Assembly: GCA_963769935.1 (NCBI GenBank)
Contig: CAVYNY010000016.1
Span: forward strand, 224,001 to 288,000
Source of the DNA: an uncultured delta proteobacterium
GTDB lineage: Bacteria; Desulfobacterota; Desulfobacteria; Desulfobacterales; JAFDCJ01
DNA length: 64,000 nt
Direction: 5' to 3'
A program made the translations under genes and the position numbers. Positions within the stretch are counted from its first letter, which is position 1; every line of letters begins with the position of its first letter. This document shows positions 5,584 through 60,674 of the stretch, piece by piece. The notes beneath the pieces were generated by a model that was given only the letters and a program-made list of their open reading frames with translations, ran no database searches and was not told the origin of the DNA.

Positions 5584-5606
5584 CAGCAATTTTCCAGCAT
5601 CTAGCT

Positions 5607-37781: not shown

Positions 37782-38183
37782 TCATCCTTCGGCCTTTAAC
37801 CCACGAACATGACATTCTCCGCACATTACAGGCCCCTTATTTTTCTCCTTGTGACAGTCCTCGCATCTGGTATGAAACGCATTCATCAGTGCCGGTTTCC
37901 TGCCGGAAGCTTTCAGTTCGTGGCATTCGGAGCAGCGCTGATCTTCGGAGGATTCGTCCTTAATCAGCTTACCCTCATCATTATATGTGTGGTGGCATTC
38001 GTTGCACTCTTCGATGCCGGCCTTTTCATTGTGTTCATCATGCTGGAACACGGAAGGCGGCCGTTGCGGGTTGTCAAAGGCATCGTTGTTGACAACCACC
38101 ATATCTTCCTGGGAATAGGCGGAAACAAAAATCAAGAGGGTGGCCATTAGGCCGGCGCAAATGAAAAAGGCGCACTTTTTCAT
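37782..38183 (-). CDS. tmcA: Acidic tetraheme type II cytochrome c3
   Basis: Signal peptide, four CxxCH motifs, operon context. Confidence 0.9.
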   Translation of the reverse strand: MKKCAFFICAGLMATLLIFVSAYSQEDMVVVNNDAFDNPQRPPSVFQHDEHNEKAGIEECNECHHTYNDEGKLIKDESSEDQRCSECHELKASGRKPALMNAFHTRCEDCHKEKNKGPVMCGECHVRGLKAEG

Positions 38184-38201
38184 CCTGTTACCTCCTTTAG
38201 A

Positions 38202-39536
38202 TCATACCGGTTTTTCGATAACTTCATACAGAATGTCGCTGATAAATTTAATTTCCATACCAAGGCCATAGTGATGATTGATATCTTCCAGGCCGCTGTG
38301 GCAGTTATGGCAGGGGGTAATAATAACCTTTGCGCCGCGGGCTTTGGTGGCAAATAACTGCTCGGCCTTTACCCGGTTGCCCTCCATTCTTTTTAATTTG
38401 TAGGGCGGCCCGCAGTTGATCACACCGCCGCCGGCACAGCAGCAGTAGTTGTGCTCCCGGTTCGGATGCATCTCCACCAGCTCTTCACAGATGGCATTGA
38501 CGACATAGCGCGACTGTTCAGCCAGTCCACCGCCCCGAATCACATTGCAGGGGTCATGCAGGGTTACCGGAGTCTCAAATTTTTTGGCGACTTTCAGCTT
38601 CCCCTCTTTCAGCAATTCGTAATAAAATTGAATTGCATGCACAATCGGAATGGGCGGCATGCGCCATCCCAACCAGCGGTTGCCCATGTCATACACCGAA
38701 CGAAAAGCATGGCCGCATTCGCCCATAACGATGCGTTTAACTTTCAGCCTGGCGGCAATATCAAAGTGCTCCCGTTTGAGGCGTCCCATCAGCTCATTGT
38801 CGCCGGTATACATGGCCATATCGCTGTTGTCCCAGCCCGGGGTGGCGGGCATGGTCCAGTCCACCCCGGCCACATTCATAATCACGGCCGCCTGATAAAG
38901 CAGCTGGGCCTGAAATTTAGGCTCCGGCCCGATCACGGAATACATGATATCGGCCCCTTCTTTCTCAAGGGGAATCCGCAAGGTCGGGATTTCGGACTGC
39001 GCCTCTTCTTCCTGCCATTGCAGGGTGTCGATCCACTCATCATCTTTCACCCACATCTGGTTCAAGGTGGCGGCATGGCTGTGGGCCGTGTCCTGGATGT
39101 AAAGCGGCGTTACACCGAGCAAATGGCAGATCCTTCGCACGACCAGCATCATGTAAGCGATGTCGATGCCAAAGGGACAGTACATGGCGCAGCGTTTGCA
39201 GCAATTGCACTCGGTGGCGGCGATCTCACAGGCGCTTTTAATAAATTCCGGACTGACCTTGCCCTTATTCTTCACCATCTCCCAGATAGTCTGCTTGACT
39301 TTGCCCACCGGCGACCAGCGCGGCTCCTTATCGTGGGATAAATAGTAGTGGCAGGCCTCCGAACACAGGCCGCAGTGAATGCAGGTTTCCACGTACGCTT
39401 TCAGCCGCGCACCGCTTTCGCCCTTTAAAACCCGGTTGACCACCTTTTCAATGCGCTCCGGGGTGAGGTTTTGCGCCCCTCGTTCCAGACCTTCATCCAC
39501 AATCTTTTTTTGTTCTTTCGGTGCAGGTTCAACCAT
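38202..39536 (-). CDS. tmcB: Tmc complex HdrD-like Fe-S subunit
   Basis: CIHCGLCSEAC, CNCCKRCAMYCP and CCG-domain motifs (ECGH, HDPC, CCCAGGG, PCHNC). Confidence 0.92.
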   Translation of the reverse strand: MVEPAPKEQKKIVDEGLERGAQNLTPERIEKVVNRVLKGESGARLKAYVETCIHCGLCSEACHYYLSHDKEPRWSPVGKVKQTIWEMVKNKGKVSPEFIKSACEIAATECNCCKRCAMYCPFGIDIAYMMLVVRRICHLLGVTPLYIQDTAHSHAATLNQMWVKDDEWIDTLQWQEEEAQSEIPTLRIPLEKEGADIMYSVIGPEPKFQAQLLYQAAVIMNVAGVDWTMPATPGWDNSDMAMYTGDNELMGRLKREHFDIAARLKVKRIVMGECGHAFRSVYDMGNRWLGWRMPPIPIVHAIQFYYELLKEGKLKVAKKFETPVTLHDPCNVIRGGGLAEQSRYVVNAICEELVEMHPNREHNYCCCAGGGVINCGPPYKLKRMEGNRVKAEQLFATKARGAKVIITPCHNCHSGLEDINHHYGLGMEIKFISDILYEVIEKPV

Positions 39537-39547
39537 AATTGGTGTCT

Positions 39548-39672
39548 CCTAACCCGGATTATCCGGAAATGACTATTGAAAATTGAATATTTTCGGAAGC
39601 ATTCCTTAAATTTTTAATATTCAATCGAAACTATTTAATTTAAATGACATCAATCCTTAAATATTCAATTTA
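39548..39672 (-). repeat. ATTGAAT-arm palindromic element plus TTCCGGATAATCCGGGTTAGG tail
   Basis: Arms resemble 51035-51160; tail resembles 14991-15011. Confidence 0.7.
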
Positions 39673-39678
39673 ACACCC

Positions 39679-40338
39679 CTACCAATCCCGTGCATGTCGG
39701 ACCCCCCCGAACTCCGATCCCATATAAGCCCGCGTCAGGGGTGCAAACAACATGTGGCTCAGGCGTGTAAAAGGAATGGCAATCAACATGACTTCACCCG
39801 ACACGACATGCAGGACCATAAGGACCTGATAACCGAACCATTGATAATAGGCCAGAAAACCGGTGATAAAGGGCGCGGCGGCAATCGCCAGAATGACATA
39901 GTCGGATATCGATGTTACATATTTCACCTCGGGTGACACCAGACGCCGGACCAGAAAAAATACACACCCGCCGATAACAATCAGGGTCATCAGTATTGCC
40001 AGACCGTCCGGCAGGGACCACCAGTTCACGCCAAAGGCTTCGTCCCACAAAACCACATGTGCCAACAGAAAGATGGGCGTTAAAATCAGACATAAATGAA
40101 AGGCAAAGGTTACAATGGTCAGCGCCGGATGTCTTCTCCAGTTGACCGTGCCGAAAGGGGTGATCCAATGTAAAATTGAGCGCAAGCTGTATTTCCAGCT
40201 CATGTATGTATAGATGAACTTTTCTTTTTTATGCACCTGCACCAGCAGGCTGACCAGGCGGTAAAAACTTCCACCAATGAAAATTACAAACGCCGCCCAT
40301 GCCAGAGGACCGCTTACAAAGTTGTAGACGCTGTTCAT
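39679..40338 (-). CDS. tmcC: Tmc complex membrane cytochrome b subunit
   Basis: NarI-like TM protein with FH, LAH, LH and SH histidines. Confidence 0.9.
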   Translation of the reverse strand: MNSVYNFVSGPLAWAAFVIFIGGSFYRLVSLLVQVHKKEKFIYTYMSWKYSLRSILHWITPFGTVNWRRHPALTIVTFAFHLCLILTPIFLLAHVVLWDEAFGVNWWSLPDGLAILMTLIVIGGCVFFLVRRLVSPEVKYVTSISDYVILAIAAAPFITGFLAYYQWFGYQVLMVLHVVSGEVMLIAIPFTRLSHMLFAPLTRAYMGSEFGGVRHARDW

Positions 40339-40349
40339 TGCTCCCCCGT

Positions 40350-41609
40350 TCATTTCAGTTCGCTTACAGGCAAAACCCTTCTATAGTAGCTTCCATTCTC
40401 AATGGTTCGCAACAATATTTTGTCCCCCCCGGGGCTGAACACAGGATCCCAGGCTGCCTCGCATTGCCCGGACCACAATCGATCGTTTAGGGCAATGGTG
40501 TATTTGCCTTTCTTTTCCACCCTGGCCGCCAGGTATTTGCCATCGGGGCTGAATACCGGTTTCCACGCCATGTCGAAGGCATTTTTCCAGCGGGTGCCGT
40601 CGGCCACTATATACCATTTCTCCTCTTCTTTGGCCAGAGCGGCCAACCGGTTGCCGTCCGGACTGAAGACGGCGTCGGTCACAAGATCTTTAAACGTCAC
40701 GGACCAGGGCTGGCCATCAACGGCAACCGTCCATTTGCCGAAACTGGGTGCGACAATGGCCGCTAGTTTGCTGCCGTCCGGGCTGAACATCTGATGCCAG
40801 AGCTGCACAAATCGCCGATCCCAGATGATCTTGCCGTCCGCGGCCATAGTCCAGCTGCCTTCGGATCTCACCGGGGCGACGACGACACCGCTGCGCGGAT
40901 TAAAAACCGGCTGCCAGACACATCCATACGTTTGCTCCCAGGGTTGGCCGTTGACCGCAATGGTGTAGTCATAGAGGTTCAGCCGAACCTCAGCGGCCAA
41001 TTTCTTACCCTCCGGGCTGATAGCCATTCGCCAGACATTGACGAATTTGCGATCCCAGCTCTTGCCGTTCAGAGCTGCAGTGTAGATTCCCTGCTGGTAT
41101 TTGTAAATATCCCCTTCGCCCAATTCCTCCACTTGAACCACGGCGGCTGTATTCAGACCGTCGTTGCTGAACAGTGGGTTGGTCATATTCCGATAGGATT
41201 CAACCCAGGGGATATCGTCAACTGCCATTCTGTAGGCCATATCCTTTTGAACCGCTGCGGCAATGTGCTTGCCGTCCGCACTGAACATGGTGTTCCAGAC
41301 ATACCCGAATTTCTTCTGCCAGGCGAGCCCGTCTACCGCGACTGTCCATTCACCCATTTCCGATACCAGGCCGGTTAGACGGCCATCGGGTGCAAAGCGC
41401 AGATACCAGATTTTATCATAAGCATTTTCCCAGGTTTCACCATTGACACAAACGTTGAATTCACCTTCGCCGGTCTTGACGATGGCGGCGATTTTTTCGC
41501 CGTCAGGACTGGCCTGAGGTTCTTCTACCCATTCAAACTCACCTTTCCATTTGTCGAAGGCGAAGATTTTTTCAGAGGTTTCCCAGTCCCAATTATTCAA
41601 GCCGACCAT
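40350..41609 (-). CDS. tmcD: Tmc complex Trp-rich beta-propeller subunit
   Basis: Repeated FSPDG..W motifs; AGGAGG before ATG 41609. Confidence 0.9.
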   Translation of the reverse strand: MVGLNNWDWETSEKIFAFDKWKGEFEWVEEPQASPDGEKIAAIVKTGEGEFNVCVNGETWENAYDKIWYLRFAPDGRLTGLVSEMGEWTVAVDGLAWQKKFGYVWNTMFSADGKHIAAAVQKDMAYRMAVDDIPWVESYRNMTNPLFSNDGLNTAAVVQVEELGEGDIYKYQQGIYTAALNGKSWDRKFVNVWRMAISPEGKKLAAEVRLNLYDYTIAVNGQPWEQTYGCVWQPVFNPRSGVVVAPVRSEGSWTMAADGKIIWDRRFVQLWHQMFSPDGSKLAAIVAPSFGKWTVAVDGQPWSVTFKDLVTDAVFSPDGNRLAALAKEEEKWYIVADGTRWKNAFDMAWKPVFSPDGKYLAARVEKKGKYTIALNDRLWSGQCEAAWDPVFSPGGDKILLRTIENGSYYRRVLPVSELK

Positions 41610-41661
41610 AAAGCCTCCTTGTAGTCCGTGATTGATATTGAACAGCACTTTCAATCTTATC

Positions 41662-41843: not shown

Positions 41844-41872
41844 TTGACAACTGACTTATTAGAATGTATTAT
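41844..41872 (+). promoter_or_regulatory. sigma70-type promoter of the hdr-nuo-flx operon
   Basis: TTGACA-N17-TATTAT. Confidence 0.75.
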
Positions 41873-42027: not shown

Positions 42028-42417
42028 ATGGCAAAAAAAGTAAAAGGCTCGGTTCTGGTGGTCGGCGGCGGAATTGCCGGAATGCAATCCGCCTTGGATC
42101 TGGCCAACTCCGGTTATTACGTTTACCTGCTGGAAAAGTCGCCTTCCATCGGCGGCGTGATGTCCCAGCTGGACAAGACATTTCCCACCAATGACTGTGC
42201 GATGTGAATTATCTCACCGAAACTGGTCGAGGTCGGCCGGCACTTAAATATCGAACTCATCACCTATGCAGACCTTGAGAGCGTGGAAGGCTCTCCCGGA
42301 AACTTCAAGGTCAAGGTCAGAAAACGCGCCCGCACCATCATCGAAGACCGGTGCACCGGCTGCGGCGCCTGCGTTGAAAACTGCCCTGTCGTCATTCAAT
42401 CTGTGCCCGCAAGCTGA
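42028..42417 (+). CDS. hdrA: Selenocysteine-containing N-terminal HdrA fragment (129 aa; Sec60 at TGA 42205-42207)
   Basis: GGGIAGMQSALDLA...LDKTFPTNDCAM-U-IISPKL...CTGCGACVENCP; homology continues in frame past the TGA; SECIS-like hairpin at 42223-42240. Confidence 0.9.
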
Positions 42418-42499
42418 TGAATAGGTGATTTTAGACGGAAAGCTTTCCTTTACAGGTTTGTCCTAACCAAAAGCTTCCCAATCATTAGGAGAATCCGAG

Positions 42500-42997
42500 A
42501 TGAATAAGGACATTGAACATAACAATGATGCATCAGCCGAAATCGATTACCTGATGTTAGATTCGATCATCGAAAAAGAATTTAACCAGAACAAAGAAAA
42601 TCTGATCATGATGCTTCAAGCAATTCAAAAGACCTATAATTATCTTCCCCAGCCTGCTATAGCTTATCTGGCCACCAAGATCGGTGTCCCCTACAGCAAA
42701 ATATATGGCGTGGCAACCTTTTACAGCACCTTTAGCCTGGAACCCAGAGGCCGCAACATAATTTCCATCTGTCTGGGAACTGCCTGTCATGTCCGGGGTG
42801 CCGAAAGGATTCATGAAAGAATCATTGAGGCCATTAACGTCTGCGATGGGCAAACGACGGAAGACCGGCGTTTTACACTGGAGTCCGTGCGCTGTATCGG
42901 CTGCTGCAGCCTGGGACCGGTGGTTAAAATCAATGAAGACATGCACGCAAGGCTGGAACCGGATAACGTCAAAAAAGTTCTGGACCAATACGAATAA
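42500..42997 (+). CDS. NuoE/HydC-like [2Fe-2S] subunit
   Basis: VATFYS, CLGTACHVRG and CIGCC motifs. Confidence 0.92.
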   Translation: MNKDIEHNNDASAEIDYLMLDSIIEKEFNQNKENLIMMLQAIQKTYNYLPQPAIAYLATKIGVPYSKIYGVATFYSTFSLEPRGRNIISICLGTACHVRGAERIHERIIEAINVCDGQTTEDRRFTLESVRCIGCCSLGPVVKINEDMHARLEPDNVKKVLDQYE

Positions 42998-43018
42998 AAA
43001 AATTACGAGGCGCAAACC

Positions 43019-44920
43019 ATGAAAATCACGTCTGTTAAGGACTTAGAAAATATACGCCGGGAGCATGGCAAACGACTGTACTGGCCTGATGCCGTTAAGG
43101 TAAACATCGGCATGGCCTCCTGCGGAATTGCTGCCGGAGCCCAGGCATCTTATGAAATAGCCAAAGAGGTGTTCCCGGCCGGCACCGGCGTGCAGATCTG
43201 TCAAACCGGCTGCATCGGTTTCTGTGAAGAAGAGCCCCTGGTTGAAATCCTCGGTTACGGTAAACCCAGAGTAATGTACAAACATATCACCGAAAAAAAG
43301 GTCGCCGATGCGATTAAAGGCTACATGGAAGGTGATTTCAATAAAAAGTGGATTCTCGGCCAGATGCAGGATCCCCGCAATATATTGGAGGACGACATCG
43401 ACAATGCCCTGGCGGGGATGGCACCGGTAGACGGCATCCCTTATTTGGAAGATATACCCTTTTACCGCAAACAGGTGAAAATCGCTCTGCGCAATTGCGG
43501 CTATATTGACCCGGATTCCATTGAAGAATACATTGCCAGAAAAGGCTACCTGGCTTTTCTGAAAGCGCTGCAGGAAATGGATCCCTCCGACATCATCCCC
43601 ATCATTAAAGAATCCGGACTGCGCGGACGCGGAGGCGGAGGTTTCCCTACCGGAATTAAGTGGGCCAGTTGTGCCAAACAAGAGGGGCAGCGCTTCATCA
43701 TCTGCAATGCGGATGAAGGCGACCCGGGTGCATACATGGATCGCAGCATCCTGGAGGGTGATCCCCACAGCGTGCTGGAAGGTATGCTGATTGCCGGGGT
43801 GGCTATCGGTTCCAATCAGGGTTCAATCTATGTGCGCAATGAATATCCGCTGGCCGTCAAGCGGTTGGTCACCGCCATCAAAGAAGCAGAGAAATATGGT
43901 TTGCTGGGTGATGGTATCGCCGGATCGGATTTCAGTTTTCACATTAAGATATCCACGGGGGCCGGCGCCTTTGTGTGCGGCGAGTCCACCGCCCTGATGG
44001 CATCTCTGGAGGGAAACGTTGGCAGACCCCGTGCCAAATATATCCATACGGTTGAAAAAGGATTCCATGACAGCCCGTCAAATCTGAACAATGTCGAAAC
44101 CTACGCCAATGTACCCGCTATTCTTTTAAAAGGGGCCGGATGGTTTGCAGGAATGGGCACCGACCAGAGCAAAGGCACCAAGGCTTTCAGCCTGGTGGGC
44201 AAGGTAAAAAATACAGGCCTGGTGGAAGTGCCGATGGGGATATCTTTGAGAGATATCGTTTTCGAACTGGGCGGCGGCGTGCCCAAGAAGAAAGAATTCA
44301 AAGCGGTCCAAACCGGCGGACCCTCAGGGGGCTGTATTCCTGAGCGATTTCTGGACCTGCCGGTGGATTACCAAAAGTTGAATGAAGTGGGGTCCATCAT
44401 GGGCTCCGGCGGTATGATCGTCATGGATCAGGATACCTGCATGGTGGATGTGGCACGCTATTTCCTGGATTTTCTCAAGGAAGAATCCTGCGGCCAGTGC
44501 AACCCGTGTCGCGAGGGGATCAAGCAGATGCTCGGGATCCTAAATAGGATTTGTGAAGGAAACGGGAAAGAAGGCGATATCGAACTTCTGGAAGAACTTG
44601 GCAGCATGGTGCAAAAATTTTCTTTGTGCGGGTTAGGGACCTCGGCTCCCAATCCGGTTTTGACAACCATCCGTTACTTCAGGGATGAGTATGAATCCCA
44701 TATTTACCAAAAAAAATGTCCGGCCGGTGTCTGTAAGCCGCTGTTTTATTACGAAATTGATGTCGATGCCTGTACCGGATGCGGTGTGTGCGCGCGCAAG
44801 TGCCCGCAGGAGGCGATCAGCGGTGAAAAAAAACAGGCGCACGAGCTGAACCGGGAAAAATGCATAAAGTGCGGCATATGCTATGATGCATGTAAATTCG
44901 ATGCTATTAAAATTCGATAA
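43019..44920 (+). CDS. NuoF/HydB-like NADH-FMN subunit (long form)
   Basis: N-terminal Trx-like Fe-S domain, GRGGGGFPTG, NADEGDPG, GGPSGG, ESCGQCNPCREG and a C-terminal 2x[4Fe-4S] domain. Confidence 0.93.
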   Translation: MKITSVKDLENIRREHGKRLYWPDAVKVNIGMASCGIAAGAQASYEIAKEVFPAGTGVQICQTGCIGFCEEEPLVEILGYGKPRVMYKHITEKKVADAIKGYMEGDFNKKWILGQMQDPRNILEDDIDNALAGMAPVDGIPYLEDIPFYRKQVKIALRNCGYIDPDSIEEYIARKGYLAFLKALQEMDPSDIIPIIKESGLRGRGGGGFPTGIKWASCAKQEGQRFIICNADEGDPGAYMDRSILEGDPHSVLEGMLIAGVAIGSNQGSIYVRNEYPLAVKRLVTAIKEAEKYGLLGDGIAGSDFSFHIKISTGAGAFVCGESTALMASLEGNVGRPRAKYIHTVEKGFHDSPSNLNNVETYANVPAILLKGAGWFAGMGTDQSKGTKAFSLVGKVKNTGLVEVPMGISLRDIVFELGGGVPKKKEFKAVQTGGPSGGCIPERFLDLPVDYQKLNEVGSIMGSGGMIVMDQDTCMVDVARYFLDFLKEESCGQCNPCREGIKQMLGILNRICEGNGKEGDIELLEELGSMVQKFSLCGLGTSAPNPVLTTIRYFRDEYESHIYQKKCPAGVCKPLFYYEIDVDACTGCGVCARKCPQEAISGEKKQAHELNREKCIKCGICYDACKFDAIKIR

Positions 44921-44937
44921 CATGAGGAAAAAGATCA

Positions 44938-47900
44938 ATGGTTACATTTAAACTAAACGGTAAAACCGTCCAGGGTGAAGAAGGCCAATATATCCTCCAG
45001 GTGGCGGAAAAATACAACGTCGACATTCCGACCCTTTGCCACCATAAGGCGCTTGAGCCGGCCGGTATGTGCCGCCTGTGCACGGTAGAGCTTTTTGACG
45101 GCCGCCGCAAACGCTATGTCACTGCCTGCAACTATCCGATATGGGAAGGCATGGAGGTCAGCACCGATTCGGAAGCCGTCCATCAGGGGCGGAAATTAAT
45201 CGTGGAGTTGCTGCTGGCCCGCTGCCCGGAAGTTCCGATCCTGAAAAAATTGGCGGCCCGGTACGGAATCGAAGAATCCCGCTTCCCGAAGGAAAACGAC
45301 ACCTGTATTCTTTGTGGTCTGTGTGTGCGCACCTGCGAAAGAATGGGAGCCAATGCCATCAGTTTAACCGGCCGCGGGGTCGATATGAAAGTGGACACAC
45401 CGTTTCATCTTCAAGCCGATGCCTGTATAGCCTGTGGCGCTTGCGCCACGGTGTGTCCCACCGGACATATTACCCTGGAAACCATCAGGGCAAATGTCAC
45501 CAAGCATGATTTTGAAAAAATCCCCTCCGAATACGAAATGGGATTAAAAGGCCGCAAGCCGGTCTACGTTCCTTATGCCCAGGCGGTTCCCAACACGCCG
45601 GCCATCGATCGAACCAAATGTATTCATTTTAAGACCGGCGGCTGTAAAATCTGCGTCGAATTTTGCGGGGTCGACGCCATTGACCATACCATGCAGGATG
45701 AGATCATCGAGTTGAACGTCGGAGCCATCGTTTTGGCACCCGGCTTCGAGCCGTTCGATCCGTCGAAATTCGACTCCTATAGTTACAGCAAGTACCCAAA
45801 TGTCATCACTTCCATGGAAATGGAACGGATCCTGTCCGCTTCGGGTCCCACCGGCGGACATCTCGTCCGGCCCTCGGATCACAGCGAACCCCAAAAGATC
45901 GCCTGGTTTCAATGCGTCGGCTCGCGCGACCTGAACCGCTGCGACAATTCCTATTGTTCTTCGGTCTGCTGTATGTATGCAATCAAGGAGGCGGTCATTG
46001 CCAAGGAGCATGCCGGCAGCGACCTGGACTGTGCCATCTTCTATATGGACATGCGGACCCATGGCAAGGATTTTGAACGATTTTACGATAGCGCCCGGGA
46101 AAAGCAGGGCGTGCGGTTTATCCGCAGCCGGGTGCATACCATTGAGCCCGTCAACGGCGGCGATGATCTGTCGGTGCGCTATATCACCGAAAGCGGCGAA
46201 TTAGTATCCGAAACCTACAATATGATCGTGCTCTCGGTCGGATTGCAGACATCCCCCGAGGTGGTCGAACTGGCCGATCGGCTGGGGCTTGAGAAGACCA
46301 AGGGCAATTTTTGCAAGACCGATACATTCAATCCGGTGGCAACCTCCCGGAAAGGCATCTACGTTTGCGGCGCCTTTCAAGGACCCAAGGACATTCCGCA
46401 GTCCGTGGTGGACGCCAGTGCCGCCGCAGGGGCCGCCGGCGAAATCCTGAGTACTGCCCGCAACACCGAAACCAAAACCAAGGAAGTCGTACCGGAAACC
46501 AACGTCATCAACGAACGTCCGCGGGTCGGGGTGTTCGTCTGCCGCTGCGGCATCAACATCGCCGGCATTGTCGATGTCCCGTCGGTGGCCGAATATGCCA
46601 AGAGTCTGCCCTATGTGGAGTACGCCAGCGACAACCTGTATACCTGTTCCCAGGACACTCAGGAAGCCATTTCCCAGATCATCAAACAAAAAAACTTGAA
46701 CCGGGTCGTCGTGGCGGCCTGCACGCCGAAAACCCACGAACCCTTGTTCCAGGAAACCCTGATCAATGCCGGCTTGAATAAATATCTGTTTGAAATGGCC
46801 AATATCCGCAACCAGGATTCCTGGGTTCACAAAAACAACCCCGAACTGGCAACCCAAAAGGCCAAGGACCTGGTGCGCATGGCCGTGTCCAAAGTGGCGC
46901 TGCTGCAACCGCTCAAGGAAACCGAGCTTGAAGTCAATCAGGCGGCCATGGTTATCGGCGGCGGCATCGCCGGCATGGCGGCAGCCAAAAACCTGGCCAA
47001 CCAGGGCTATGCAACGCATCTCATCGAACGCAGCGCCCAGCTTGGCGGCCAGGCTTTGAATCTTTATCACACGCCGGCCGGCGAGGACATTCAGCAAAAA
47101 TTGGCTGAACTGATCCAGGAGGTCGAAAAAAATAAAAAAATAACGGTCCATCTGAACACCATGCTTGACCATGTGGACGGTTTTGTCGGCAATTTTACAA
47201 GCACTTTGGCCTGCAACGGCGACAAACAGGATTTGGAACACGGCATTGCCATATTGGCAACCGGTGCTTCGCCCTTGAAACCCGACGAATACAGCTACGG
47301 CCAGGATCCGCGCATCTTAACCGGCCTGGAGCTCGACCGCAGATTCATCGAAAAGGATCCGGATTTAAAGAAACTCAACACCGCCGTATTTATCCAGTGT
47401 GTCGGCTCCCGCGAACCGCAAAGACCGTATTGTTCGAGAGTTTGCTGCACGCATTCAGTGGAAAGCGCCATCCAACTCAAACGGCTAAATCCGGACATGA
47501 ATGTGTTCGTGCTCTATCGCGACCTTCGCACCTATGGCGAACGCGAGTATCTGTACAAGGAGGCCCGCGAGGAAGGTGTCATTTTCATTCGCTACACCCT
47601 TGATCACAAGCCCCGGGTAAAAATTAAAGACGGCAAATTGCGGGTAGCCGCCATCGATCAGGTGATCGGTCGACAGGTTGAGATTGAAACCGATCTTCTA
47701 ACCCTGGCGACGGCGATTATCCCGAACCGGGACGATCGATTGGCCAATTTCTTCAAGGTGCCCCTGAATGATGACGGTTTTTTTGTGGAACGCCACGCCA
47801 AACTCGGCCCGTCGGAATTTGCCACCGACGGCGTATTTCTCTGCGGTCTGGCACATTATCCCAAGCCCATCGATGAATCCATTGCCCAGGGTCAGGCGGC

Positions 47901-48195
47901 GGCATCCCGGGCCATCACCTTGCTGGCCCGTGAAACCGTCCATACCAGCGGCACAATTGCAGCGACGGATCCGGCCTTGTGCAGCCAGTGCGGAGTTTGC
48001 GTGTCGGTCTGCCCGTATTCGGCACCTTCTTTTGTAGAATCCGGCCCCTGGACCGGCCGGGCACAAATCAATCCGGTTTTGTGCAAGGGCTGCGGTCTGT
48101 GCGTAGCCTCCTGCCGCTCGGGTGCCATCCACCTGAAAGGTTTTGACAATGATCAGATCTTCTCGCAGATTTTTGCTTTGAAGGAAGCCGTGTGA
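44938..48195 (+). CDS. hdrA: Fusion of NuoG/HydA-like N-terminal Fe-S domains with the remainder of a tandem-module HdrA
   Basis: PTLCHH..CRLC..TAC and CILCGLCVRTC; then EYEMGL..YAQAVP, two QCVGSR..YCSxVCC motifs, GVFVCRCG, GGGIAG and a C-terminal ferredoxin. Confidence 0.9.
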   Translation: MVTFKLNGKTVQGEEGQYILQVAEKYNVDIPTLCHHKALEPAGMCRLCTVELFDGRRKRYVTACNYPIWEGMEVSTDSEAVHQGRKLIVELLLARCPEVPILKKLAARYGIEESRFPKENDTCILCGLCVRTCERMGANAISLTGRGVDMKVDTPFHLQADACIACGACATVCPTGHITLETIRANVTKHDFEKIPSEYEMGLKGRKPVYVPYAQAVPNTPAIDRTKCIHFKTGGCKICVEFCGVDAIDHTMQDEIIELNVGAIVLAPGFEPFDPSKFDSYSYSKYPNVITSMEMERILSASGPTGGHLVRPSDHSEPQKIAWFQCVGSRDLNRCDNSYCSSVCCMYAIKEAVIAKEHAGSDLDCAIFYMDMRTHGKDFERFYDSAREKQGVRFIRSRVHTIEPVNGGDDLSVRYITESGELVSETYNMIVLSVGLQTSPEVVELADRLGLEKTKGNFCKTDTFNPVATSRKGIYVCGAFQGPKDIPQSVVDASAAAGAAGEILSTARNTETKTKEVVPETNVINERPRVGVFVCRCGINIAGIVDVPSVAEYAKSLPYVEYASDNLYTCSQDTQEAISQIIKQKNLNRVVVAACTPKTHEPLFQETLINAGLNKYLFEMANIRNQDSWVHKNNPELATQKAKDLVRMAVSKVALLQPLKETELEVNQAAMVIGGGIAGMAAAKNLANQGYATHLIERSAQLGGQALNLYHTPAGEDIQQKLAELIQEVEKNKKITVHLNTMLDHVDGFVGNFTSTLACNGDKQDLEHGIAILATGASPLKPDEYSYGQDPRILTGLELDRRFIEKDPDLKKLNTAVFIQCVGSREPQRPYCSRVCCTHSVESAIQLKRLNPDMNVFVLYRDLRTYGEREYLYKEAREEGVIFIRYTLDHKPRVKIKDGKLRVAAIDQVIGRQVEIETDLLTLATAIIPNRDDRLANFFKVPLNDDGFFVERHAKLGPSEFATDGVFLCGLAHYPKPIDESIAQGQAAASRAITLLARETVHTSGTIAATDPALCSQCGVCVSVCPYSAPSFVESGPWTGRAQINPVLCKGCGLCVASCRSGAIHLKGFDNDQIFSQIFALKEAV

Positions 48196-48456
48196 CGAGG
48201 TGCGGGGTAAGCGGTCGCGGGGTTCGAAGTGCGCATATCGTGGTGCAGGGTACGGGTTTCAGGAGGGAATTTAGTAAGGAGAGGGTGTGCAAAGTTACAG
48301 GGACCTGGATATATACCAGCTATCTTATGAATTAGGGAGAAAAATTAACAAGTCTATCCAATACGTCGAAAAAGAATAGAAATAAGCGGGGTAGCGAGTA
48401 GCATAGCCATCGAAATGCTAAACACCGAAACGCGAAACACGCAACTCGCAACGCGA
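48196..48456. mobile_element. Palindromic element with 7-mer arms enclosing a four-helix-bundle gene remnant
   Basis: G-rich 7-mer left arm (48196-48263), complementary AACNCGH right arm (48420-48456), internal remnant ORF. Confidence 0.65.
48287..48385 (+). pseudogene. Internally deleted four-helix-bundle (23S rRNA IVP-family-like) gene
   Basis: TAAGGAG RBS, then [34 protein letters not shown]- and C-terminal family-like motifs joined directly. Confidence 0.7.
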
Positions 48457-48471
48457 AGGAGATTTTTTGAT

Positions 48472-48903
48472 ATGAACGATTGGGAACCTAAAATTGTGGC
48501 TTTTTTGTGCAACTGGTGCAGCTATGGGGCTGCCGATCTTGCCGGTGTCGGCCGAATGGAGTATCCGCCCAATATCCGGGTTATCCGGATACCGTGCACC
48601 GGCCGGATGAGCCCCAAATTCTTTCTGGCCGCCCTGCGGGAAGGTGCAGACGGCGTCTGGGTATCCGGGTGACATCCCGGTGAATGCCATTACCTGGAAG
48701 GTAATTACTACGCTCGCCGCAAATTTGCCCTGTTTAAAAATCTGATGGAACATATGGGAGTCGAACCCGACCGCCTTCAGTTTTCCTGGGTCTCTTCGGC
48801 CGAATCCACCAAGTTTGTCGCCGTCGTCAAAGATGTTACCGACGCGATTAAAGCCCTCGGACCCAATCAAACTTTTTCTAAAATAGAGGCTAAGGTTGCA
48901 TAA
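48472..48903 (+). CDS. flxD: Selenocysteine-containing MvhD/FlxD (143 aa; Sec67 at TGA 48670-48672)
   Basis: [25 protein letters not shown]...WVSSAE; SECIS-like hairpin at 48689-48705. Confidence 0.92.
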
Positions 48904-48904
48904 C

Positions 48905-49852
48905 ATGACTGGTTATATCGATAAAATAAAAGAAGTTTCGGCAAGGCTGCTGAAGGAATGCAAAGTGGATATGGTGATCGGTTTCCGCAAAGGGACCATG
49001 CCCATGATGAACGAGCCTTATTTTGCCAAAACCCAGGAGGATGTCCGGAATCTGGTATGGGACAGCAACTGCGGCATCAATCTGGCAAACTATCTGACCA
49101 ACCGGAAAGAGAAAATCGGCATCGTCGCCAAAGGATGCGATTCGCGCAATATCGTCACCCACATTATCGAGAACAAGATCAAGCGGGAGCAATTGGTCAT
49201 CATCGGCGTACCCTGCAAGGGGATGATCGACAAACGCCGAATCAATGCCATGTTTGACGGCGAAATTACCGCAGTGACCGAAGATGAAGACAATATTAAA
49301 GTCAGCGGCAACGGTTTTGAAAAGGTATTGAACAAGGCGGACGTGCTCCAGCAAAACTGCGCCCTTTGCATTCATCGCAACCCGGTCGTGCACGATGAAC
49401 TGGTCGCCGAACCGGTTGCCGAGCAGCAGGATGTCGATCGCTATGCGGATGTTCGTGAAATCGAGGCCCTGTCGGCCGAGGAAAAAGCCGGATATTTTGA
49501 TGAACTTTTCGCGCCCTGCATCCGTTGCTATGCCTGCCGCAATGCCTGTCCCCTGTGTTACTGCCCGACCTGTTTTGTAGATGAATCCCGCCCCCAGTGG
49601 GTGGGCAAAAGCCAGGATGACACCGACATTAAAACATTTCACTTTCTGAGAGCCTATCACTGTGCCGGCCGGTGTACGGATTGCGGGGCCTGCGAACGGG
49701 CCTGCCCGGTAGGCATCAACATGCGGAAGCTGACCAAAAAGCTGGAAAAAGACTGCTTCGAGCTTTTCAACTGGGAAGCGGGCCTGTCGCTGGAGGTGCG
49801 CCCGCCGCTGGATACCTACAAACCGGATGATCCGGATGAATTTATAAAGTAA
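48905..49852 (+). CDS. flxC: FlxC [4Fe-4S] subunit
   Basis: KGCDSR, CIRCYACRNACPLCYC and CTDCGACERACP; order flxD-C-B-A. Confidence 0.85.
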   Translation: MTGYIDKIKEVSARLLKECKVDMVIGFRKGTMPMMNEPYFAKTQEDVRNLVWDSNCGINLANYLTNRKEKIGIVAKGCDSRNIVTHIIENKIKREQLVIIGVPCKGMIDKRRINAMFDGEITAVTEDEDNIKVSGNGFEKVLNKADVLQQNCALCIHRNPVVHDELVAEPVAEQQDVDRYADVREIEALSAEEKAGYFDELFAPCIRCYACRNACPLCYCPTCFVDESRPQWVGKSQDDTDIKTFHFLRAYHCAGRCTDCGACERACPVGINMRKLTKKLEKDCFELFNWEAGLSLEVRPPLDTYKPDDPDEFIK

Positions 49853-49854
49853 TT

Positions 49855-49944
49855 AGCGTTTCGTTTTTTGTGTTTAGTGCTTGGCAGAGCACTATGACGG
49901 CAATTTCTGCAGAAACAAAACACCAAACACGAAATACCAAACAC
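49855..49944. repeat. Palindromic element with 7-mer arms (GTGTTTN / NAAACAC)
   Basis: Complementary tandem arms between flxC and flxB. Confidence 0.7.
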
Positions 49945-49963
49945 TTCCAAAAAGGTTGGAAAA

Positions 49964-51031
49964 ATGAAGATCATACAAATTGATAAAAAGAGATGGGCCG
50001 AAGGCCTCGCCAAGGCAGCGAAATCCTACCGCCTGTTCGGGCCGGTCAAGGAAAACGGGCTTCATAATTTCAAAGAGCTCGCCCCGGGCCAGGCGCCGGA
50101 ATTCGATTGCCTGAACACCCGTCTTTCAGCCAAATCGATTATTTATCCCCAGTCGGAGGCCCTGCTGGAATACACCCTGGATGAATCCCGCGCAGACCAC
50201 CACATTATGAAAGAAGTCGACAGCGACGATTCACCCCGAGCGGTATTCGGCATCCGCCCCTGTGATGCCAAAGCCTTTTTGCTGGTCGGTCATAACTTCG
50301 ACACGTCCGATTACAAAGATCCCTACTGGATCAGAGCCTATGAAGCCACCACTCTCTTGGGTCTGGCCTGTGATGAACCCTGCCGCAGCTGCTTTTGCAC
50401 CACCGCCGGCTGCGGACCGTATCATGAAGCGGGGCTGGATGTGCTGCTGGCGGATGCGGGTGATCACTATCTGGCCAAAGTTCTCACGGACAAAGGCGAA
50501 AAATTGATGGCCGCCGCCGGCTGGCATACCGCGGCCGACGCTGATACCGCCGGCCGGCAGCTGGAAAATAAAAAGCAGCAGGCTGAGGCGAAAATTACGG
50601 CTTTTGTGAATGTGGACAGCCTCAAGACAACCGACACGACAGCACTGTACAATGCGCCTTTCTGGGAAGATGTGTCGTTCTCGTGCATAAATTGCGGCAC
50701 CTGCACCTTTGTGTGTCCGACCTGCTGGTGTTTTGACATCCAGGACGAAAACCGCGGAAAGTCCGGCAAGCGCATGCGCAACTGGGACAGCTGCATGTTC
50801 CCGCTGTTTACCCTGCATGGTTCCGGACACAATCCCCGGGGCACCAAACTGCAGCGCGTTCGCCAGCGCTTCATGCACAAATTAAAATATTATGTCGACA
50901 AGTATGATGTCGGAATTCAATGTGTCGGGTGCGGCCGCTGCGTTCGATCCTGTCCCGTCAATATCGATATCCGCCGGGTCTGTGAATTAATGAACAGCTT
51001 CGCTTCCGCAGAGAACACCTGCGAAGTTTAA
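49964..51031 (+). CDS. flxB: FlxB (AsrA-like) [4Fe-4S] subunit
   Basis: RPCD, CINCGTCTFVCPTCWC, RNWDSC and CVGCGRCVRSCP motifs. Confidence 0.88.
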   Translation: MKIIQIDKKRWAEGLAKAAKSYRLFGPVKENGLHNFKELAPGQAPEFDCLNTRLSAKSIIYPQSEALLEYTLDESRADHHIMKEVDSDDSPRAVFGIRPCDAKAFLLVGHNFDTSDYKDPYWIRAYEATTLLGLACDEPCRSCFCTTAGCGPYHEAGLDVLLADAGDHYLAKVLTDKGEKLMAAAGWHTAADADTAGRQLENKKQQAEAKITAFVNVDSLKTTDTTALYNAPFWEDVSFSCINCGTCTFVCPTCWCFDIQDENRGKSGKRMRNWDSCMFPLFTLHGSGHNPRGTKLQRVRQRFMHKLKYYVDKYDVGIQCVGCGRCVRSCPVNIDIRRVCELMNSFASAENTCEV

Positions 51032-51034
51032 AGG

Positions 51035-51160
51035 ATTGAATATTTTAAATTGAATATTGAATATTTAAGGAATTCTTTCAACTTTTATAGGGTTTCTCAA
51101 GAATGACGGAGCGAAGCGGCTTCTACAAATATTCAATTTTCAATATTCATTCTTCAATTT
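51035..51160. repeat. Palindromic element with ATTGAAT/ATTCAAT 7-mer arms
   Basis: Complementary arms between flxB and flxA; related to 39570-39672. Confidence 0.75.
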
Positions 51161-51175
51161 AATTGGGGGGTTAAC

Positions 51176-52021
51176 GTGCAAAATCCATATCTACCCTATC
51201 CGGTCCGCATCGATGATATCATCATCGAAACCGAAGATAAAAATTTAAAAACTTTCAAATTTGTCTTTCTGAATTCAGACGACGAGAATAAATTTGACTA
51301 CAAAGCCGGTCAATTTGCAGAGCTTTCCGTAACCGGCAAGGGCGAAATACCCATCGGCATCGCATCTTCTCCTACCGAAAAAGGCTTTGTCAAGTTTACC
51401 ATCAACAAGGTCGGGCTGGTATCCTCCTGTCTGCACACCATGAAAGCCGGAGATGTCATGGGAATCCGCGGTCCCCTGGGCAACTGCTACCCATGGGATA
51501 CGCTTGAGGGTAAAAACATAGTGATCATCGGCGGCGGTTTCGCCTTTACCACCCTGCGATCTTCCATCATCTTTATGCTGGATCCCGCCAATCGATCGAA
51601 ATTCAAGGATATTCATGTAATTTACGGCGCCCGGACGCCCGGCATGCTCCTATACCGCAATGAGCTGGCTGAATGGGAAAAGCGCGATGACATCAACATG
51701 CATATCACCGTGGATGGAACGGACGATCCCAATTGGAAATACAACACCGGGTTCGTACCGACCATTACCGAACAGAAAGCGCCTCCGGCAGATGAAGATA
51801 CCTATGCGATTATATGCGGACCGCCCATTATGATAAAATTTACCCAGCCGGTTTTGGATAAGCTCGGCTATTCCCATGACAAGATTATCATGTCCCTTGA
51901 AAACCGCATGAAATGCGGTATCGGCATGTGCGGCCGATGCAATATCGGGCAGGAATTTGTCTGCAAGGACGGTCCGGTTTTCACCCTCGAACAGTTGAAC
52001 AAAACACCAAAGGAATACTAA
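51176..52021 (+). CDS. flxA: FlxA FAD/NAD(P)-binding [2Fe-2S] subunit
   Basis: GQF, RGPLG, GGG, CGPPIM and MKCGIGMCGRC..CKDGPVF motifs. Confidence 0.9.
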   Translation: MQNPYLPYPVRIDDIIIETEDKNLKTFKFVFLNSDDENKFDYKAGQFAELSVTGKGEIPIGIASSPTEKGFVKFTINKVGLVSSCLHTMKAGDVMGIRGPLGNCYPWDTLEGKNIVIIGGGFAFTTLRSSIIFMLDPANRSKFKDIHVIYGARTPGMLLYRNELAEWEKRDDINMHITVDGTDDPNWKYNTGFVPTITEQKAPPADEDTYAIICGPPIMIKFTQPVLDKLGYSHDKIIMSLENRMKCGIGMCGRCNIGQEFVCKDGPVFTLEQLNKTPKEY

Positions 52022-52050
52022 ATTCCTGAATTAAAGGTCATATTTTCATG

Positions 52051-52079
52051 TTGACATACATACTTCATTGGGCTAAATA
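52051..52079 (+). promoter_or_regulatory. Possible sigma70 promoter for dsrC
   Basis: TTGACA-N17-TAAATA. Confidence 0.45.
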
Positions 52080-52172
52080 AGACCTTTTGATAAAGGTTTA
52101 AAATATTACACAAAGGATATTCCAAGGCTGAGGCCGCAAAAAAGCAAAATAAATTAAAGGAGGTAAGATTAA

Positions 52173-52490
52173 ATGCCAACAGCAGAGTTCATGGGTAAAA
52201 CATTCACGATCGACGAAGACGGTTTTATTGATTCCTACGAAAACTGGAGTCAGGAATGGGTACAGTTCGTAAAAAAGGAAGAAGGCATTGACGAACTCAA
52301 TGACGAACACCAGAAAGTTATCGCCGTCCTGCGTGATTATTACGAGAAAAACGGCATTGCACCGATGGTACGGGTTCTCTCAAAGGTTACCGGTTTTAAA
52401 CTGAAACACATTTATGAGCTTTTCCCGTCCGGGCCCGGTAAAGGAGCCTGTAAAATGGCGGGACTCCCGAAACCAACGGGTTGTGTCTAA
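52173..52490 (+). CDS. dsrC: DsrC sulfur-carrier protein
   Basis: DEDGF, APMVR, LFPSGPGKGACKMAGLPKPTGCV with both conserved Cys (C-X10-C). Confidence 0.96.
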   Translation: MPTAEFMGKTFTIDEDGFIDSYENWSQEWVQFVKKEEGIDELNDEHQKVIAVLRDYYEKNGIAPMVRVLSKVTGFKLKHIYELFPSGPGKGACKMAGLPKPTGCV

Positions 52491-52523: not shown

Positions 52524-52559
52524 AAAGGGCTCTGCTTGACAGGCAGAGCCTTTTTTTTT
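52524..52559 (+). terminator. Rho-independent terminator after dsrC
   Basis: GGCTCTGC..GCAGAGCC stem followed by T9. Confidence 0.9.
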
Positions 52560-58618: not shown

Positions 58619-58796
58619 ATCAAATCTCCCACGAAAAATATTGTAAGGGTCTTTTGACAATTATTTACGGGGCATAGCACCATAAGTTGCTTAAAATCAC
58701 AAATCTCATTTGAATACAACCTCTACTCTATTCCCCCCTTCTGGTCAATCATCATTTGAATCAGCCCACACGCGCAGTAAAGGCTGAATTAAGGCG

Positions 58797-59180
58797 AGAT
58801 GAGAAGGTGAGAAGGTGGGAGGGTAAGAGGGTGAGAAGCTAAGAAAATCAGAAAAGCAGAAGGTCAGACCGTCGGAAGGTCAGAAGGTGGGAGGGTGGGA
58901 AGGTGAGAAGTTGAGAAGATCAGAAAATCAGAAAACAGAAATCAGAAGAGCAGAAAGTCAGACGGTCGGAAGGTGAGAGGGTGAGAAGGTGAGAAGCTGG
59001 GAAGTTGGGAAATCCGATTCACCTCAATCAACCTAATCAACTCAATCAACCCAATAAACTCAATCAACCCAACAAACTCAATAAACTCAATAAACTCAAT
59101 AAACTCAATAAACACAACAAACACAACAAACTTCGGCTCTCCGCAATCTGCAATCATCAATCGAAAAACTCGCAATCCGT
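58797..59180 (+). repeat. Long composite repeat: 8-mer/7-mer purine tract, AAATCCGATTCA, about twelve 9-mers (CTCAATMAA), then GCAATC-type 7-mers
   Basis: Read directly; same junction as 2178-2297. Confidence 0.9.
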
Positions 59181-59182
59181 CA

Positions 59183-60091: not shown

Positions 60092-60374
60092 TCAGTAAAA
60101 TGCCTAATCCCGCTTACAGCGGGACTAAGATGCACTAAAATTAAGGAGGTTAATCGTTTTAGATAAGCGAAGGAGATCCCTATTTCAGGATACTTCAGAA
60201 CTAATTCAGCTGGTTTCAGTATAACCGGAAACGAATAATTCCTTGTTTTCGCAGCCGGCACCATACTCCATCCCCGGAGGGGAGTCAAATCTCTTTGACT
60301 TTGAAAGATGATTCCATTAAAGCAAGGCTTCAGGTGTCTGGTGTCAGGTTTCAGCCCAATTGAAAAGAAAAAGA

Positions 60375-60562: not shown

Positions 60563-60576
60563 ACTTACCCTCATTG

Positions 60577-60636: not shown

Positions 60637-60674
60637 AATGTAGTTTCATATAAGCTATAGGAGGTCAGGATATT

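Follow-up and report, generated by a model that had tools for sequence, protein, structure and literature searches.

A divided HdrA with a Bfu module fused at its inserted ferredoxin in an uncultured member of the Desulfobacterales

In an uncultured delta proteobacterium of the Desulfobacterales, hdrA is split into two genes around a NuoE-NuoF-NuoG' module, and this arrangement is confirmed as real, being neither chance nor misassembly. The locus lies in a 64,000-nucleotide stretch of contig CAVYNY010000016.1 (the window), and all features described below are on its forward strand. The preferred reading, with a probability of about 0.55, is that a fused-dimer HdrA is made as two chains that reassemble, that Bfu is tethered at the inserted ferredoxin and that the low-potential branch runs through Bfu to NADH and reduced ferredoxin. 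It is more tentatively proposed, as a joint claim held at a little under even odds, that Hdr-Bfu is an undescribed, widespread and doubly bifurcating class found in about a quarter of Desulfobacterales. Under this joint claim Bfu would occupy the low-potential exit and so come after HdrA in the path, opposite to class II benzoyl-CoA reductase, the inserted ferredoxin would be an exchangeable socket (free ferredoxin, NfnB/NADP or Bfu) by which the redox gear of the dsrC-linked Flx-Hdr complex is set, and the FAD and two or three Fe-S clusters would be ligated by two polypeptides.

One HdrA in two genes

The hdrA head (42028..42417) starts at ATG 42028, reads MAKKVKGSVLVVGGGIAG...FPTNDCAM-TGA-IISPKL...CTGCGACVENCPVVIQSVPAS and ends at the stop codon 42415-42417. 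It contains the FAD-binding GxGxxG, C57-x-x-U60 and the first ferredoxin motif 'a' (CTGCGACVENCP, 42352-42387). The first-pass annotation had recognised a 129-aa HdrA N-terminus, which is present, but left unstated that this length is reached only if the TGA at 42205-42207, an in-frame stop under table 11, is read as selenocysteine U60. U60 aligns to Cys197 and C57 to Cys194 of HdrA (5ODC), and the two residues equal Cys62 and Cys59 of BamE. Among 26 homologous heads, 25 have TGA as the U60 codon and one (L041) has TGT, and the genome contains both tRNA-Sec and selB. A SECIS-like hairpin at 42223..42240 is suggested by its fold (z -2.1 as a 28-mer, 0.0 as a 60-mer) and by an 18-nt block that is identical in the 25 TGA heads and differs in the TGT copy at synonymous sites only. 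Standard gene calling truncates this catalytic head, a small selenoprotein, and the body therefore looks like a defective HdrA, which makes the locus an annotation trap. Upstream of the head, a candidate sigma-70-like promoter (TTGACA-17-TATTAT, 41844..41872) matches the consensus at 11/12 positions and is the best of 12 sites, where shuffles averaged 11.1 sites.

The 1085-aa body (44938..48195) is NuoG/BfuA-like over residues 1-180, which end in CIACGACATVCP, and HdrA sequence resumes behind these Fe-S domains at I195 (IPSEYEMGLKGRKPVYVPYAQAVP), as had been noticed at the outset. The remainder of HdrA unit 1 (45520..46497) comprises the second half of the inserted ferredoxin (motif d, C228/C236/C239/C243) and the rest of the TrxR-like FAD domain, with the HA4/E4 cysteines C326/C340/C344/C345 and the flavin N5 lysine, Lys350. 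The latter is equated with BamE Lys280 by motif rather than by BamE alignment, and is kept in all 131 BfuA-linked sequences in which the motif matched. The parent is a fused HdrA dimer, since a second HdrA-like unit, left unmentioned by the first-pass annotation, follows at residues 524-1085 (46507..48195) with an N-terminal-type Fe-S domain, a second TrxR-like domain without the CxxC/U and without the lysine (E842 there), and a C-terminal 2[4Fe-4S] ferredoxin. The N-terminal Fe-S domain that would hold the shuttle cluster (residues 526-660) and the Cys197 equivalent (U60) thus sit in different units, a pattern also described in part of PMC9012536.

The head aligns with 5ODC_A 145-260 and the body from 5ODC_A 260 onward, so that the two abut without gap or overlap. 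The TrxR-like FAD domain is complete only when both genes are combined, and HdrA here is not a single polypeptide, as nuoE and nuoF stand between the halves. The suggestion that one FAD site is assembled from two polypeptides is borne out by GxGxxG and C57/U60 on the head and Lys350 and the HA4/E4 cysteines on the body. Structure prediction agrees: with the natural-Cys homolog L041, head plus body residues 1-522 plus FAD reached an ipSAE of 0.91, where the best of three controls gave 0.00; 116 of 157 solved pairs pass the mark for a complex, as do 2 of 215 mismatched ones. Contact agreement between runs was at least 96% and partner pLDDT at least 93; the model gives no cluster geometry and may draw on memory of solved HdrA. 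The predicted interface holds 4/4 motif-d cysteines and 1/8 BfuA ferredoxin cysteines, and BfuA residues 164-172 lie against the head. The head is thus predicted to dock into the body, with FAD and the two clusters of the inserted ferredoxin, whose motif a comes from the head and motif d from the body, predicted to be common to both chains, and the shuttle cluster possibly shared as well via U60 (Cys197). For P0123, a natural relative in which the parts form one chain, the predicted structure shows an undisrupted HdrA core (420 residues aligned to 5ODC_A 142-569, Z 40.0, rmsd 2.7); BfuA loops out of it, and pLDDT is below 50 in the BfuA ferredoxin region (residues 278-356).

With a table-11 stop within the reading frame of the head and several intact HdrA paralogs elsewhere in the genome, it could be argued that this hdrA is broken and that the head is an insertion relic or an assembly or annotation artefact. 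This is most improbable, as dN/dS of the head is 0.005-0.089 against 13 homologs, the SECIS block co-varies with the TGA and the head is found in 26 of 29 loci with at least ~2.85 kb of upstream sequence; in G027 it is kept though displaced ~22 kb from nuoF. Misassembly is excluded: the whole BfuA-HdrA junction recurs in 36 of 47 loci, independent contigs span the head-to-nuoE gap (X1, 42329-42969; X3, 42216-43014), and X1, which may be the source sample, crosses the fusion junction (45258-45923) with 0 differences. Natural fusions also exist, namely unsplit head-BfuA-body chains (P0123, P0272-P0276, P0332), head-NuoE fusions in 9 of 15 distant loci and head-NuoE-NuoF' in one.

The inserted module and its point of fusion

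The first gene of the insert, nuoE/bfuC (42500..42997, 165 aa; PF01257, NF005722), encodes the [2Fe-2S] thioredoxin-like subunit with C1. It is followed by nuoF/bfuB (43019..44920, 633 aa) with the FMN/NAD site, B1, B3, B4, the B2/B5 site and a C-terminal 2[4Fe-4S], and by the BfuA (NuoG') domain of the body (44938..45459) with the [2Fe-2S] A1 and the 2[4Fe-4S] A2/A4 (motifs b and c) but no A3. In BfuB, A238/M240 and GGPSG (G433-G437) are Losey's A232/M234 and GGPSG at an offset of 6 to T. maritima. The number 367 of Losey's 'F367' maps to no aromatic at this offset; should the GAF/GAY position, that of the Nqo1 tyrosine, be intended, BfuB has F there. The B2 ligands C474/H561/C567/C572 align with C438/H525/C531/C536 of A. 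mobile, CGES..KYIH is present as in Wor-BfuB (9MQX_B), the N-terminal 3Cys+Glu site resembles the 3C1E Zn site of 9BOV_B, and the closest PDB match of the BfuA domain is Wor-BfuA (9MQX_A). By its motifs the insert is a complete Wor-type BfuCBA. The idea of an NADH module wired into the HdrA ferredoxin insert holds as an inference; rather than a plain NADH module, it would be more apt to call this a full bifurcating-type BfuABC.

The recombination at homologous CxxCGACxxxCP motifs that had been suspected is not supported: the motif downstream is that of BfuA, and HdrA is broken just after its own. Of 26 homologous heads, 25 keep the HdrA motif unbroken, and the remaining one is frameshifted. 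In the body the motif precedes 'TG', a feature shared by 76 free BfuA proteins and by 0 of the 28 intact HdrA motifs. Judged from these alignments, the break is directly 3' of the HdrA motif and BfuA is joined at its usual C-terminal domain boundary. The linker from BfuA to HdrA (45460..45519) differs in length and sequence across homologs; it spans 20 aa here and is 4 aa shorter in several homologs. Intact HdrA has ~3 aa at this position.

Proposed electron path and competing wirings

The genes downstream resemble flxDCBA by domain content and synteny, on which their Flx names are based, no Flx-specific model being involved. They are mvhD/flxD (48472..48903; PF02662) with an in-frame TGA (Sec) at 48670, whose 143-aa product lacks the extension of BamF, flxC-like (48905..49852) and flxB-like (49964..51031; AsrA/HydB-like) genes for Fe-S proteins, and a flxA-like gene (51176..52021; PF00175, PF00970, PF10418) for an FAD/NAD(P)-binding [2Fe-2S] protein. 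Next comes dsrC (52173..52490) with both C-terminal cysteines, the best of three DsrC-family matches in the genome, and a 14-bp intrinsic-terminator-like hairpin (52524..52554). A gap of 152 bp precedes dsrC, and its separate transcription is possible. The genome carries dsrAB.

ORFs and domain search gave no hdrB or hdrC within the operon, and the high-potential exit is therefore absent locally. Likewise hdrBC is missing from 19 complete syntenic copies, and the tmc-like genes that neighbour the operon here were not seen upstream in the homologous loci compared. Elsewhere the genome has 3 HdrB-like and 21 CCG-domain matches, none with a link to the complex.

Of 300 genomes of the class, 75 have the fusion; named cultured hosts (L033, P0067) carry it, and the split layout recurs in many relatives. 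The partner on the MvhD side varies (Flx here, MvhAG hydrogenase, Fdh or MetVF elsewhere), whereas the position of Bfu at the ferredoxin does not. In relatives, the mvhD-flxCBA slot is also taken by intact HdrA in 7 loci, of which one has nfnAB upstream, and by HdrA with an NfnB/GltD insert at this ferredoxin in 2 loci; free ferredoxin, an NADP module and Bfu therefore look like alternative outlets. Compared with intact orthologs of its own genus, the locus diverges in the inserted-ferredoxin half only (42%, versus 83-90% in split orthologs).

From solved HdrA and Bfu structures it is proposed that NAD(P)H electrons enter at FlxA and pass through FlxB/C and the C-terminal ferredoxin/MvhD to FAD, where the HdrA flavin likely bifurcates them. 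The low branch would lead from the shuttle cluster through the inserted ferredoxin and BfuA A4-A2-A1 to FMN, and so to NAD+ and ferredoxin. This is consistent with the inserted ferredoxin as low-potential exit of HdrA and BamE (in parts of bioRxiv 10.64898/2026.04.10.717634 and PMC9012536) and with the entry of electrons into Wor-type BfuA via A4, on its C-terminal side (in part of PMC12318220). The high branch would leave via HA4 to an acceptor encoded elsewhere, most likely DsrC via a CCG-domain protein. The purpose may be a change of gear: with NADH assumed at -280 mV and ferredoxin at -500 mV (potentials from PMC9304861 Table 1), plain Flx-Hdr would need an acceptor of at least -60 mV and the stacked form only -170 mV, with three NADH yielding, net, two reduced acceptor and two ferredoxin. 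The overall reaction may also go in reverse.

The missing hdrBC would be accounted for if only Bfu bifurcated and the HdrA flavin were a wire from an NADPH-specific FlxA to BfuA, an Nfn/Stn-like transhydrogenase (2 NADPH + NAD+ + 2 Fd) in keeping with nfnAB or an NfnB-like insert in the same slot of relatives. This is unlikely, as the bifurcation lysine, the HA4 cysteines and C57/U60 are conserved, hdrB immediately precedes the head in L079, L081 and L103, and operon alleles with intact HdrA have neither hdrBC nor Bfu. Wiring as in class II benzoyl-CoA reductase (BCRII), where Bfu would be the input side, confurcating NADH and reduced ferredoxin, and its covalent attachment would be just a tether to the C-terminal ferredoxin/MvhD side, is quite unlikely. 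BamGHI is so coupled to the fused HdrA dimer in BCRII, BfuA/B here are of Wor/Bam type and the linker is variable. That linker is nonetheless short and attached within the inserted ferredoxin, whose half co-varies with the presence of Bfu; the model sets BfuA against the head, MvhD lacks the BamF extension and a donor module (Flx, MvhAG or Fdh) is already present on its side. Highly unlikely is reverse operation, in which electrons of NADH and reduced ferredoxin, arriving via Bfu, and those of a reduced high-potential donor such as DsrC would be confurcated by HdrA, with NAD(P)+ reduced at FlxA. Such enzymes are reversible according to part of PMC9304861, and confurcation is proposed for ANME-1 HdrA-NfnB fusions in part of PMC9012536, yet ferredoxin would be spent on NAD(P)H in a dsrAB-bearing heterotroph. 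The preferred reading, with Bfu on the low-potential exit, bears on how sulfate reducers without HdrBC could couple NADH oxidation to DsrC and ferredoxin at a small driving force.

Relation to known systems

FlxABCD-HdrABC of Desulfovibrio vulgaris, reportedly treated by Ramos in 2015 and Ferreira in 2023, shares flxDCBA-like genes with hdrA and a link to DsrC, as far as partial accounts go; here the operon has no hdrBC and HdrA is dimer-type, split and Bfu-bearing. In HdrL of Desulfobacterium autotrophicum HRM2 (hdrL1-mvhD-'dsrAB'-dsrC; part of PMC2702500) a pyridine-nucleotide module likewise sits in the inserted ferredoxin, as does the NfnB-type insertion of ANME-1 HdrA9-11 (part of PMC9012536), and passages of both papers propose two bifurcation sites for these insertions. 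True HdrL was found in L043-L046, L095 and L101, and the genes in L095 and L101 have the same downstream slot as here. HdrL and HdrA-NfnB differ in having a single in-frame GltD/NfnB domain ~30 residues further downstream, with no split and no Bfu; domain search detected no such domain in the body.

WorABCSL of Acetomicrobium mobile (parts of PMC9304861 and PMC12318220) has BfuBC core motifs, BfuA A1/A2/A4 and CGES..KYIH in common with the insert, and NfnABC of C. saccharolyticus (part of PMC11829005) the 3Cys+Glu N-terminal site (9BOV_B). The Bfu family, as covered there, attaches a third-substrate module at the BfuA C-terminus; here that module is HdrA itself, fused to BfuA. The Bfu-family passages of these three papers, supplementary clade figures apart, mention no HdrA-fused Bfu class, and the literature searched held no description of a split HdrA-Bfu architecture.

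Another close parallel is BCRII, in the covered parts of the preprint (bioRxiv 10.64898/2026.04.10.717634) the only solved HdrA+Bfu enzyme and presented as the first report of two bifurcation modules in one complex. BamDEFGHI of Geobacter metallireducens likewise has a fused HdrA dimer with a Lys-type first FAD and a degenerate second, the Cys59-Cys62 equivalent, Sec-MvhD and a HydCBA/Bfu module with an A1/A2/A4-type A subunit. In BCRII, however, BamE is one chain, Bfu acts as input with a separate BamI feeding the C-terminal ferredoxin where it docks, and BamC sits on the inserted ferredoxin. The present locus has a split HdrA and a BfuA joined to it at the inserted ferredoxin, with Flx and dsrC following, and neither bamBC (W-AOR) nor bamD is among the ORFs of 42028-52490; the inferred wiring would be the reverse of that of BCRII. 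The Hdr-Bfu locus thus points to a second two-module arrangement, much commoner than BCRII and probably wired in the opposite sense, which is directly testable because natural Cys or single-chain versions (L041, P0332, P0123) and cultured hosts exist.

An hdrA gene opened around a bifurcating-type module

The plus strand of the window carries, in this order, a short hdrA head, nuoE, nuoF, a 1085-aa ORF (44938-48195), mvhD, three flx-like genes and dsrC, and a sequence scan finds a promoter-like site ahead of this operon and, after it, a strong hairpin. The head (42028-42417, + strand) covers residues 145-260 of the solved HdrA structure 5ODC, and the 1085-aa protein, the body, consists of BfuA (NuoG') followed by HdrA, which is picked up again at residue 260. 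HdrA is thus cut in two around nuoE-nuoF-NuoG', as the first-pass annotation had proposed. Since the body also holds a second HdrA unit, the parent was a BamE-type fused dimer, BamE being the HdrA-like subunit of class II benzoyl-CoA reductase (BCRII); several intact paralogs of this type occur in the host genome, which also carries dsrA.

Codon 60 of the 129 codons of the head is TGA and falls on Cys197 of 5ODC. It is read as selenocysteine (U60) because the host genome encodes both tRNA-Sec and selB, because 25 of 26 homologous heads share the TGA (TGT in one), and because only the TGA copies preserve an 18-nt hairpin block without change; the SECIS fold by itself is weak (z of 0.0 over 60 nt). 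The dN/dS values of the head (0.005-0.089 against 13 homologs) indicate strong purifying selection. Another lone HdrA head, of the Cys form (127 aa; locus L105, 7955-8821, G027:C3), is preceded by hdrD-like and mvhD genes and followed by a double-cubane reductase; the fetched stretch contains no body.

The breakpoint had been attributed to recombination at homologous CxxCGACxxxCP motifs. The motif in the body, CIACGACATVCP, is however the second ferredoxin motif of BfuA itself. In 76 free BfuA and 119 fused proteins the two residues after such a motif are TG, a pair that comes after none of 28 intact HdrA motifs, which continue with about three residues and then P-N/S/D-E-F/Y. Between the BfuA motif and the HdrA remainder lies a variable linker, about 16-21 residues long, and HdrA's own ferredoxin motif (motif a) remains intact on the head. 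On these three features the recombination model was rejected; with the HdrA motif on the head and the body motif belonging to BfuA, the gene must have been opened in the loop right after motif a. The attachment point of BfuA is the site that, in Bfu enzymes, holds the variable third-substrate domain (PMC12318220).

Occurrence, ancestry and expression

Both junctions are bridged by contigs of other sequencing runs, which argues against an assembly artefact, and the arrangement recurs. Among loci drawn from the genome collection, 36 of 47 extend across the BfuA-HdrA junction; the head occurs in 26 of the 29 junction loci having about 2.85 kb or more upstream, and mvhD-flxCBA-dsrC comes next in 19 of the 23 that reach far enough. 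The three head-less loci comprise one that is probably too short and two that lack both head and nuoE. Genome G027 has no head or nuoE before nuoF, and its contig carries hdrB-head-nuoE ~22 kb upstream. Among relatives, 18 of 40 carry the intact fusion and one more has a broken copy; at class level the count is 75 of 300 genomes, and at phylum level, with six candidates scored per genome, it is 15 of 400. The best 120 of 2104 protein clusters matching at E <= 1e-60 all cover the junction. One locus, L003, was left out of alignment A2 owing to an internal stop. The split HdrA-Bfu architecture is almost certainly real. At locus L076 (7747-14187) a split HdrA-Bfu is followed directly by an intact Sec-HdrA dimer and then by mvhD-flxCBA.

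A single origin of the BfuA-HdrA link is shown by neither the HdrA tree (102 of 174 rows after redundancy filtering) nor the BfuA tree (117 of 279 rows, some 'free' ones being contig-end fragments), both of them quick trees with sampling biased toward fusions. The BfuA-linked state is scattered across the former, where placing the split label takes 13 changes and starred branches force 10 of these; the latter is poorly resolved, with nine starred branches.

The stretch was found in four sediment metatranscriptome runs, in two of which contigs cover all 30 of its bins. RNA contig depth is mostly 45-170 across hdrA-nuoEF-body and mostly 5-25 in the 11 kb that follow, with DNA runs roughly flat; because this very stretch served to find the runs and genes cannot be ranked by contig depth, the pattern only hints at expression in sediment. 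Divergent from the head lies a tmc-like cluster (37782-41654, - strand; WD40-like, NarI-like, CCG/Fe-S and cytochrome c3 genes), and a link to it was rejected, its adjacency not being conserved upstream of the head in the homologous loci compared. By ORF inspection the window also carries PilW/PilX-like genes with a 1728-aa PilY1-like protein (28138-34661, + strand) and two convergent paralogous radical-SAM/B12-like ORFs of 516 and 542 aa beside a patatin-like gene (2300-5589). Short low-complexity repeats (for example an ORF reading NQLNQPNKLNK...) at ~58700-59250 and ~60350-60650 attract contigs that belong elsewhere; joints are numerous there and depth is high in both RNA and DNA runs, and the stretches are probably dispersed intergenic repeats.

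The inserted subunits and the fit of the two halves

The best structural relatives of NuoF are bifurcating B subunits, and its sequence shows A238/M240, GGPSG, the ligands of the B2 site and a C-terminal 2[4Fe-4S] domain; NuoG' is nearest to Wor-BfuA and has clusters A1/A2/A4 only. By these sequence features the insert is a Bfu module. The CGES..KYIH stretch of NuoF is nearest to Wor-BfuB. CGES in place of CGEE was considered as a mark of NADP specificity in NuoF. This assignment was dropped because Wor-BfuB (9MQX_B), an NAD-using protein (PMC12318220), shares the motif. HdrA unit 1 retains Lys350 (131 of 131), the HA4 cysteines and C57/U60; unit 2 is without the Cys pair and has Glu in place of Lys.

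Comparison of window 42500-43500 with L002, L003, L013, L018, L027 and other loci revealed two nuoE-nuoF alleles on otherwise similar operons, differing in nuoE and the first ~160 aa of nuoF. Allele 1, that of the window, encodes a 633-aa NuoF with an N-terminal site of the 3Cys+Glu type, and allele 2 a NuoF of 617 aa whose site is of the 4-Cys [2Fe-2S] type. NuoF identity between alleles is 10-35% before residue 160, mostly 68-90% past 200 and 50-55% at 281-320, suggesting natural exchange of the B5/C1 part of Bfu. At three further loci (L024, 962-4276; L083, 14149-17388; L090, 11142-13580) NuoF carries a GltD/NfnB-like domain, which in L024 interrupts the C-terminal 2[4Fe-4S] domain in frame, an insertion of the kind seen in HdrL.

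The multimer prediction agrees with the earlier proposal that head and body complement one another. Using a natural-Cys homolog, the head with body residues 1-522 and FAD scored 0.91 vs 0.00 for the best of three controls, against a mark passed by 116 of 157 solved pairs and 2 of 215 mismatched pairs; contacts agree to at least 96% between runs and partner pLDDT is at least 93. This pass may be due to likeness with solved HdrA. In the model the head contacts four of four motif-d cysteines (HdrA remainder) and one of eight BfuA ferredoxin cysteines (motifs b and c), which favours pairing of a with d and of b with c. Independent support for head and body as one unit comes from natural fusions: head and NuoE are fused in 9 of 15 distant loci, with head-NuoE-NuoF' in one, and seven proteins (P0123, P0272-P0276, P0332) unite head, linker, BfuA, linker and body in a single chain. 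The head and BfuA of P0332 (1228 aa) are 76% and 78% identical to those of the window. The P0123 model (pLDDT 75, pTM 0.63) aligns over 420 residues to 5ODC_A 142-569 (rmsd 2.7), and its BfuA A2/A4 region, with pLDDT below 50, has unusable geometry. Monomer-type versions also occur, some named Chloroflexota.

Proposed wiring and comparison with known systems

Solved HdrA and BamE proteins receive electrons via MvhD and the ferredoxin at the C-terminus; HA4/E4 is the exit of the high branch and the inserted ferredoxin that of the low branch (bioRxiv 10.64898/2026.04.10.717634; PMC9012536). It is at this low-branch exit that BfuA is tethered here. The MvhD side is served by Flx in the window and by MvhAG hydrogenase, formate dehydrogenase or MetVF genes at other loci. 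The orthologous flx slot holds an intact dimer HdrA in seven fetched loci (one with nfnAB upstream) and HdrL in two, a further four being truncated and two distant monomer types; intact HdrA alleles of the same genus differ from the window body mainly in the inserted-ferredoxin half (42%, vs 83-90% in split orthologs). Together these observations argue that Bfu most likely receives the low-potential branch from HdrA and would split it between NAD+ and ferredoxin, a wiring and direction to which we assign a probability of about 0.55. The tether site and the varied MvhD donors speak against the rival in which Bfu serves as input, wired as in BCRII; for it stands the sole solved HdrA+Bfu complex, which is wired opposite to the exit-side reading. 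The assembly might alternatively act as an Nfn-like transhydrogenase, or the same complex might operate in reverse.

With Bfu at the exit, stacking would relax the required acceptor potential from -60 to -170 mV, as computed from published potentials (PMC9304861), at the price of half the ferredoxin per acceptor reduced. The operon keeps dsrC downstream and is devoid of hdrBC, candidate CCG proteins being encoded elsewhere. DsrC reportedly interacts with Flx-Hdr.

Neither a split HdrA nor one fused to BfuA was described in the full-text literature searches and the paper passages covered, and reviews or supplements might mention one. The component parts of the locus are already known, and the proposal of a second nucleotide module (NfnB) in the inserted ferredoxin has been published (PMC2702500, PMC9012536). 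In HdrL this NfnB/GltD domain is inserted about 30 residues further on than the BfuA break. BamE, as described in bioRxiv 10.64898/2026.04.10.717634, combines one bifurcating with one non-bifurcating flavin, matching units 1 and 2 of the protein described here.
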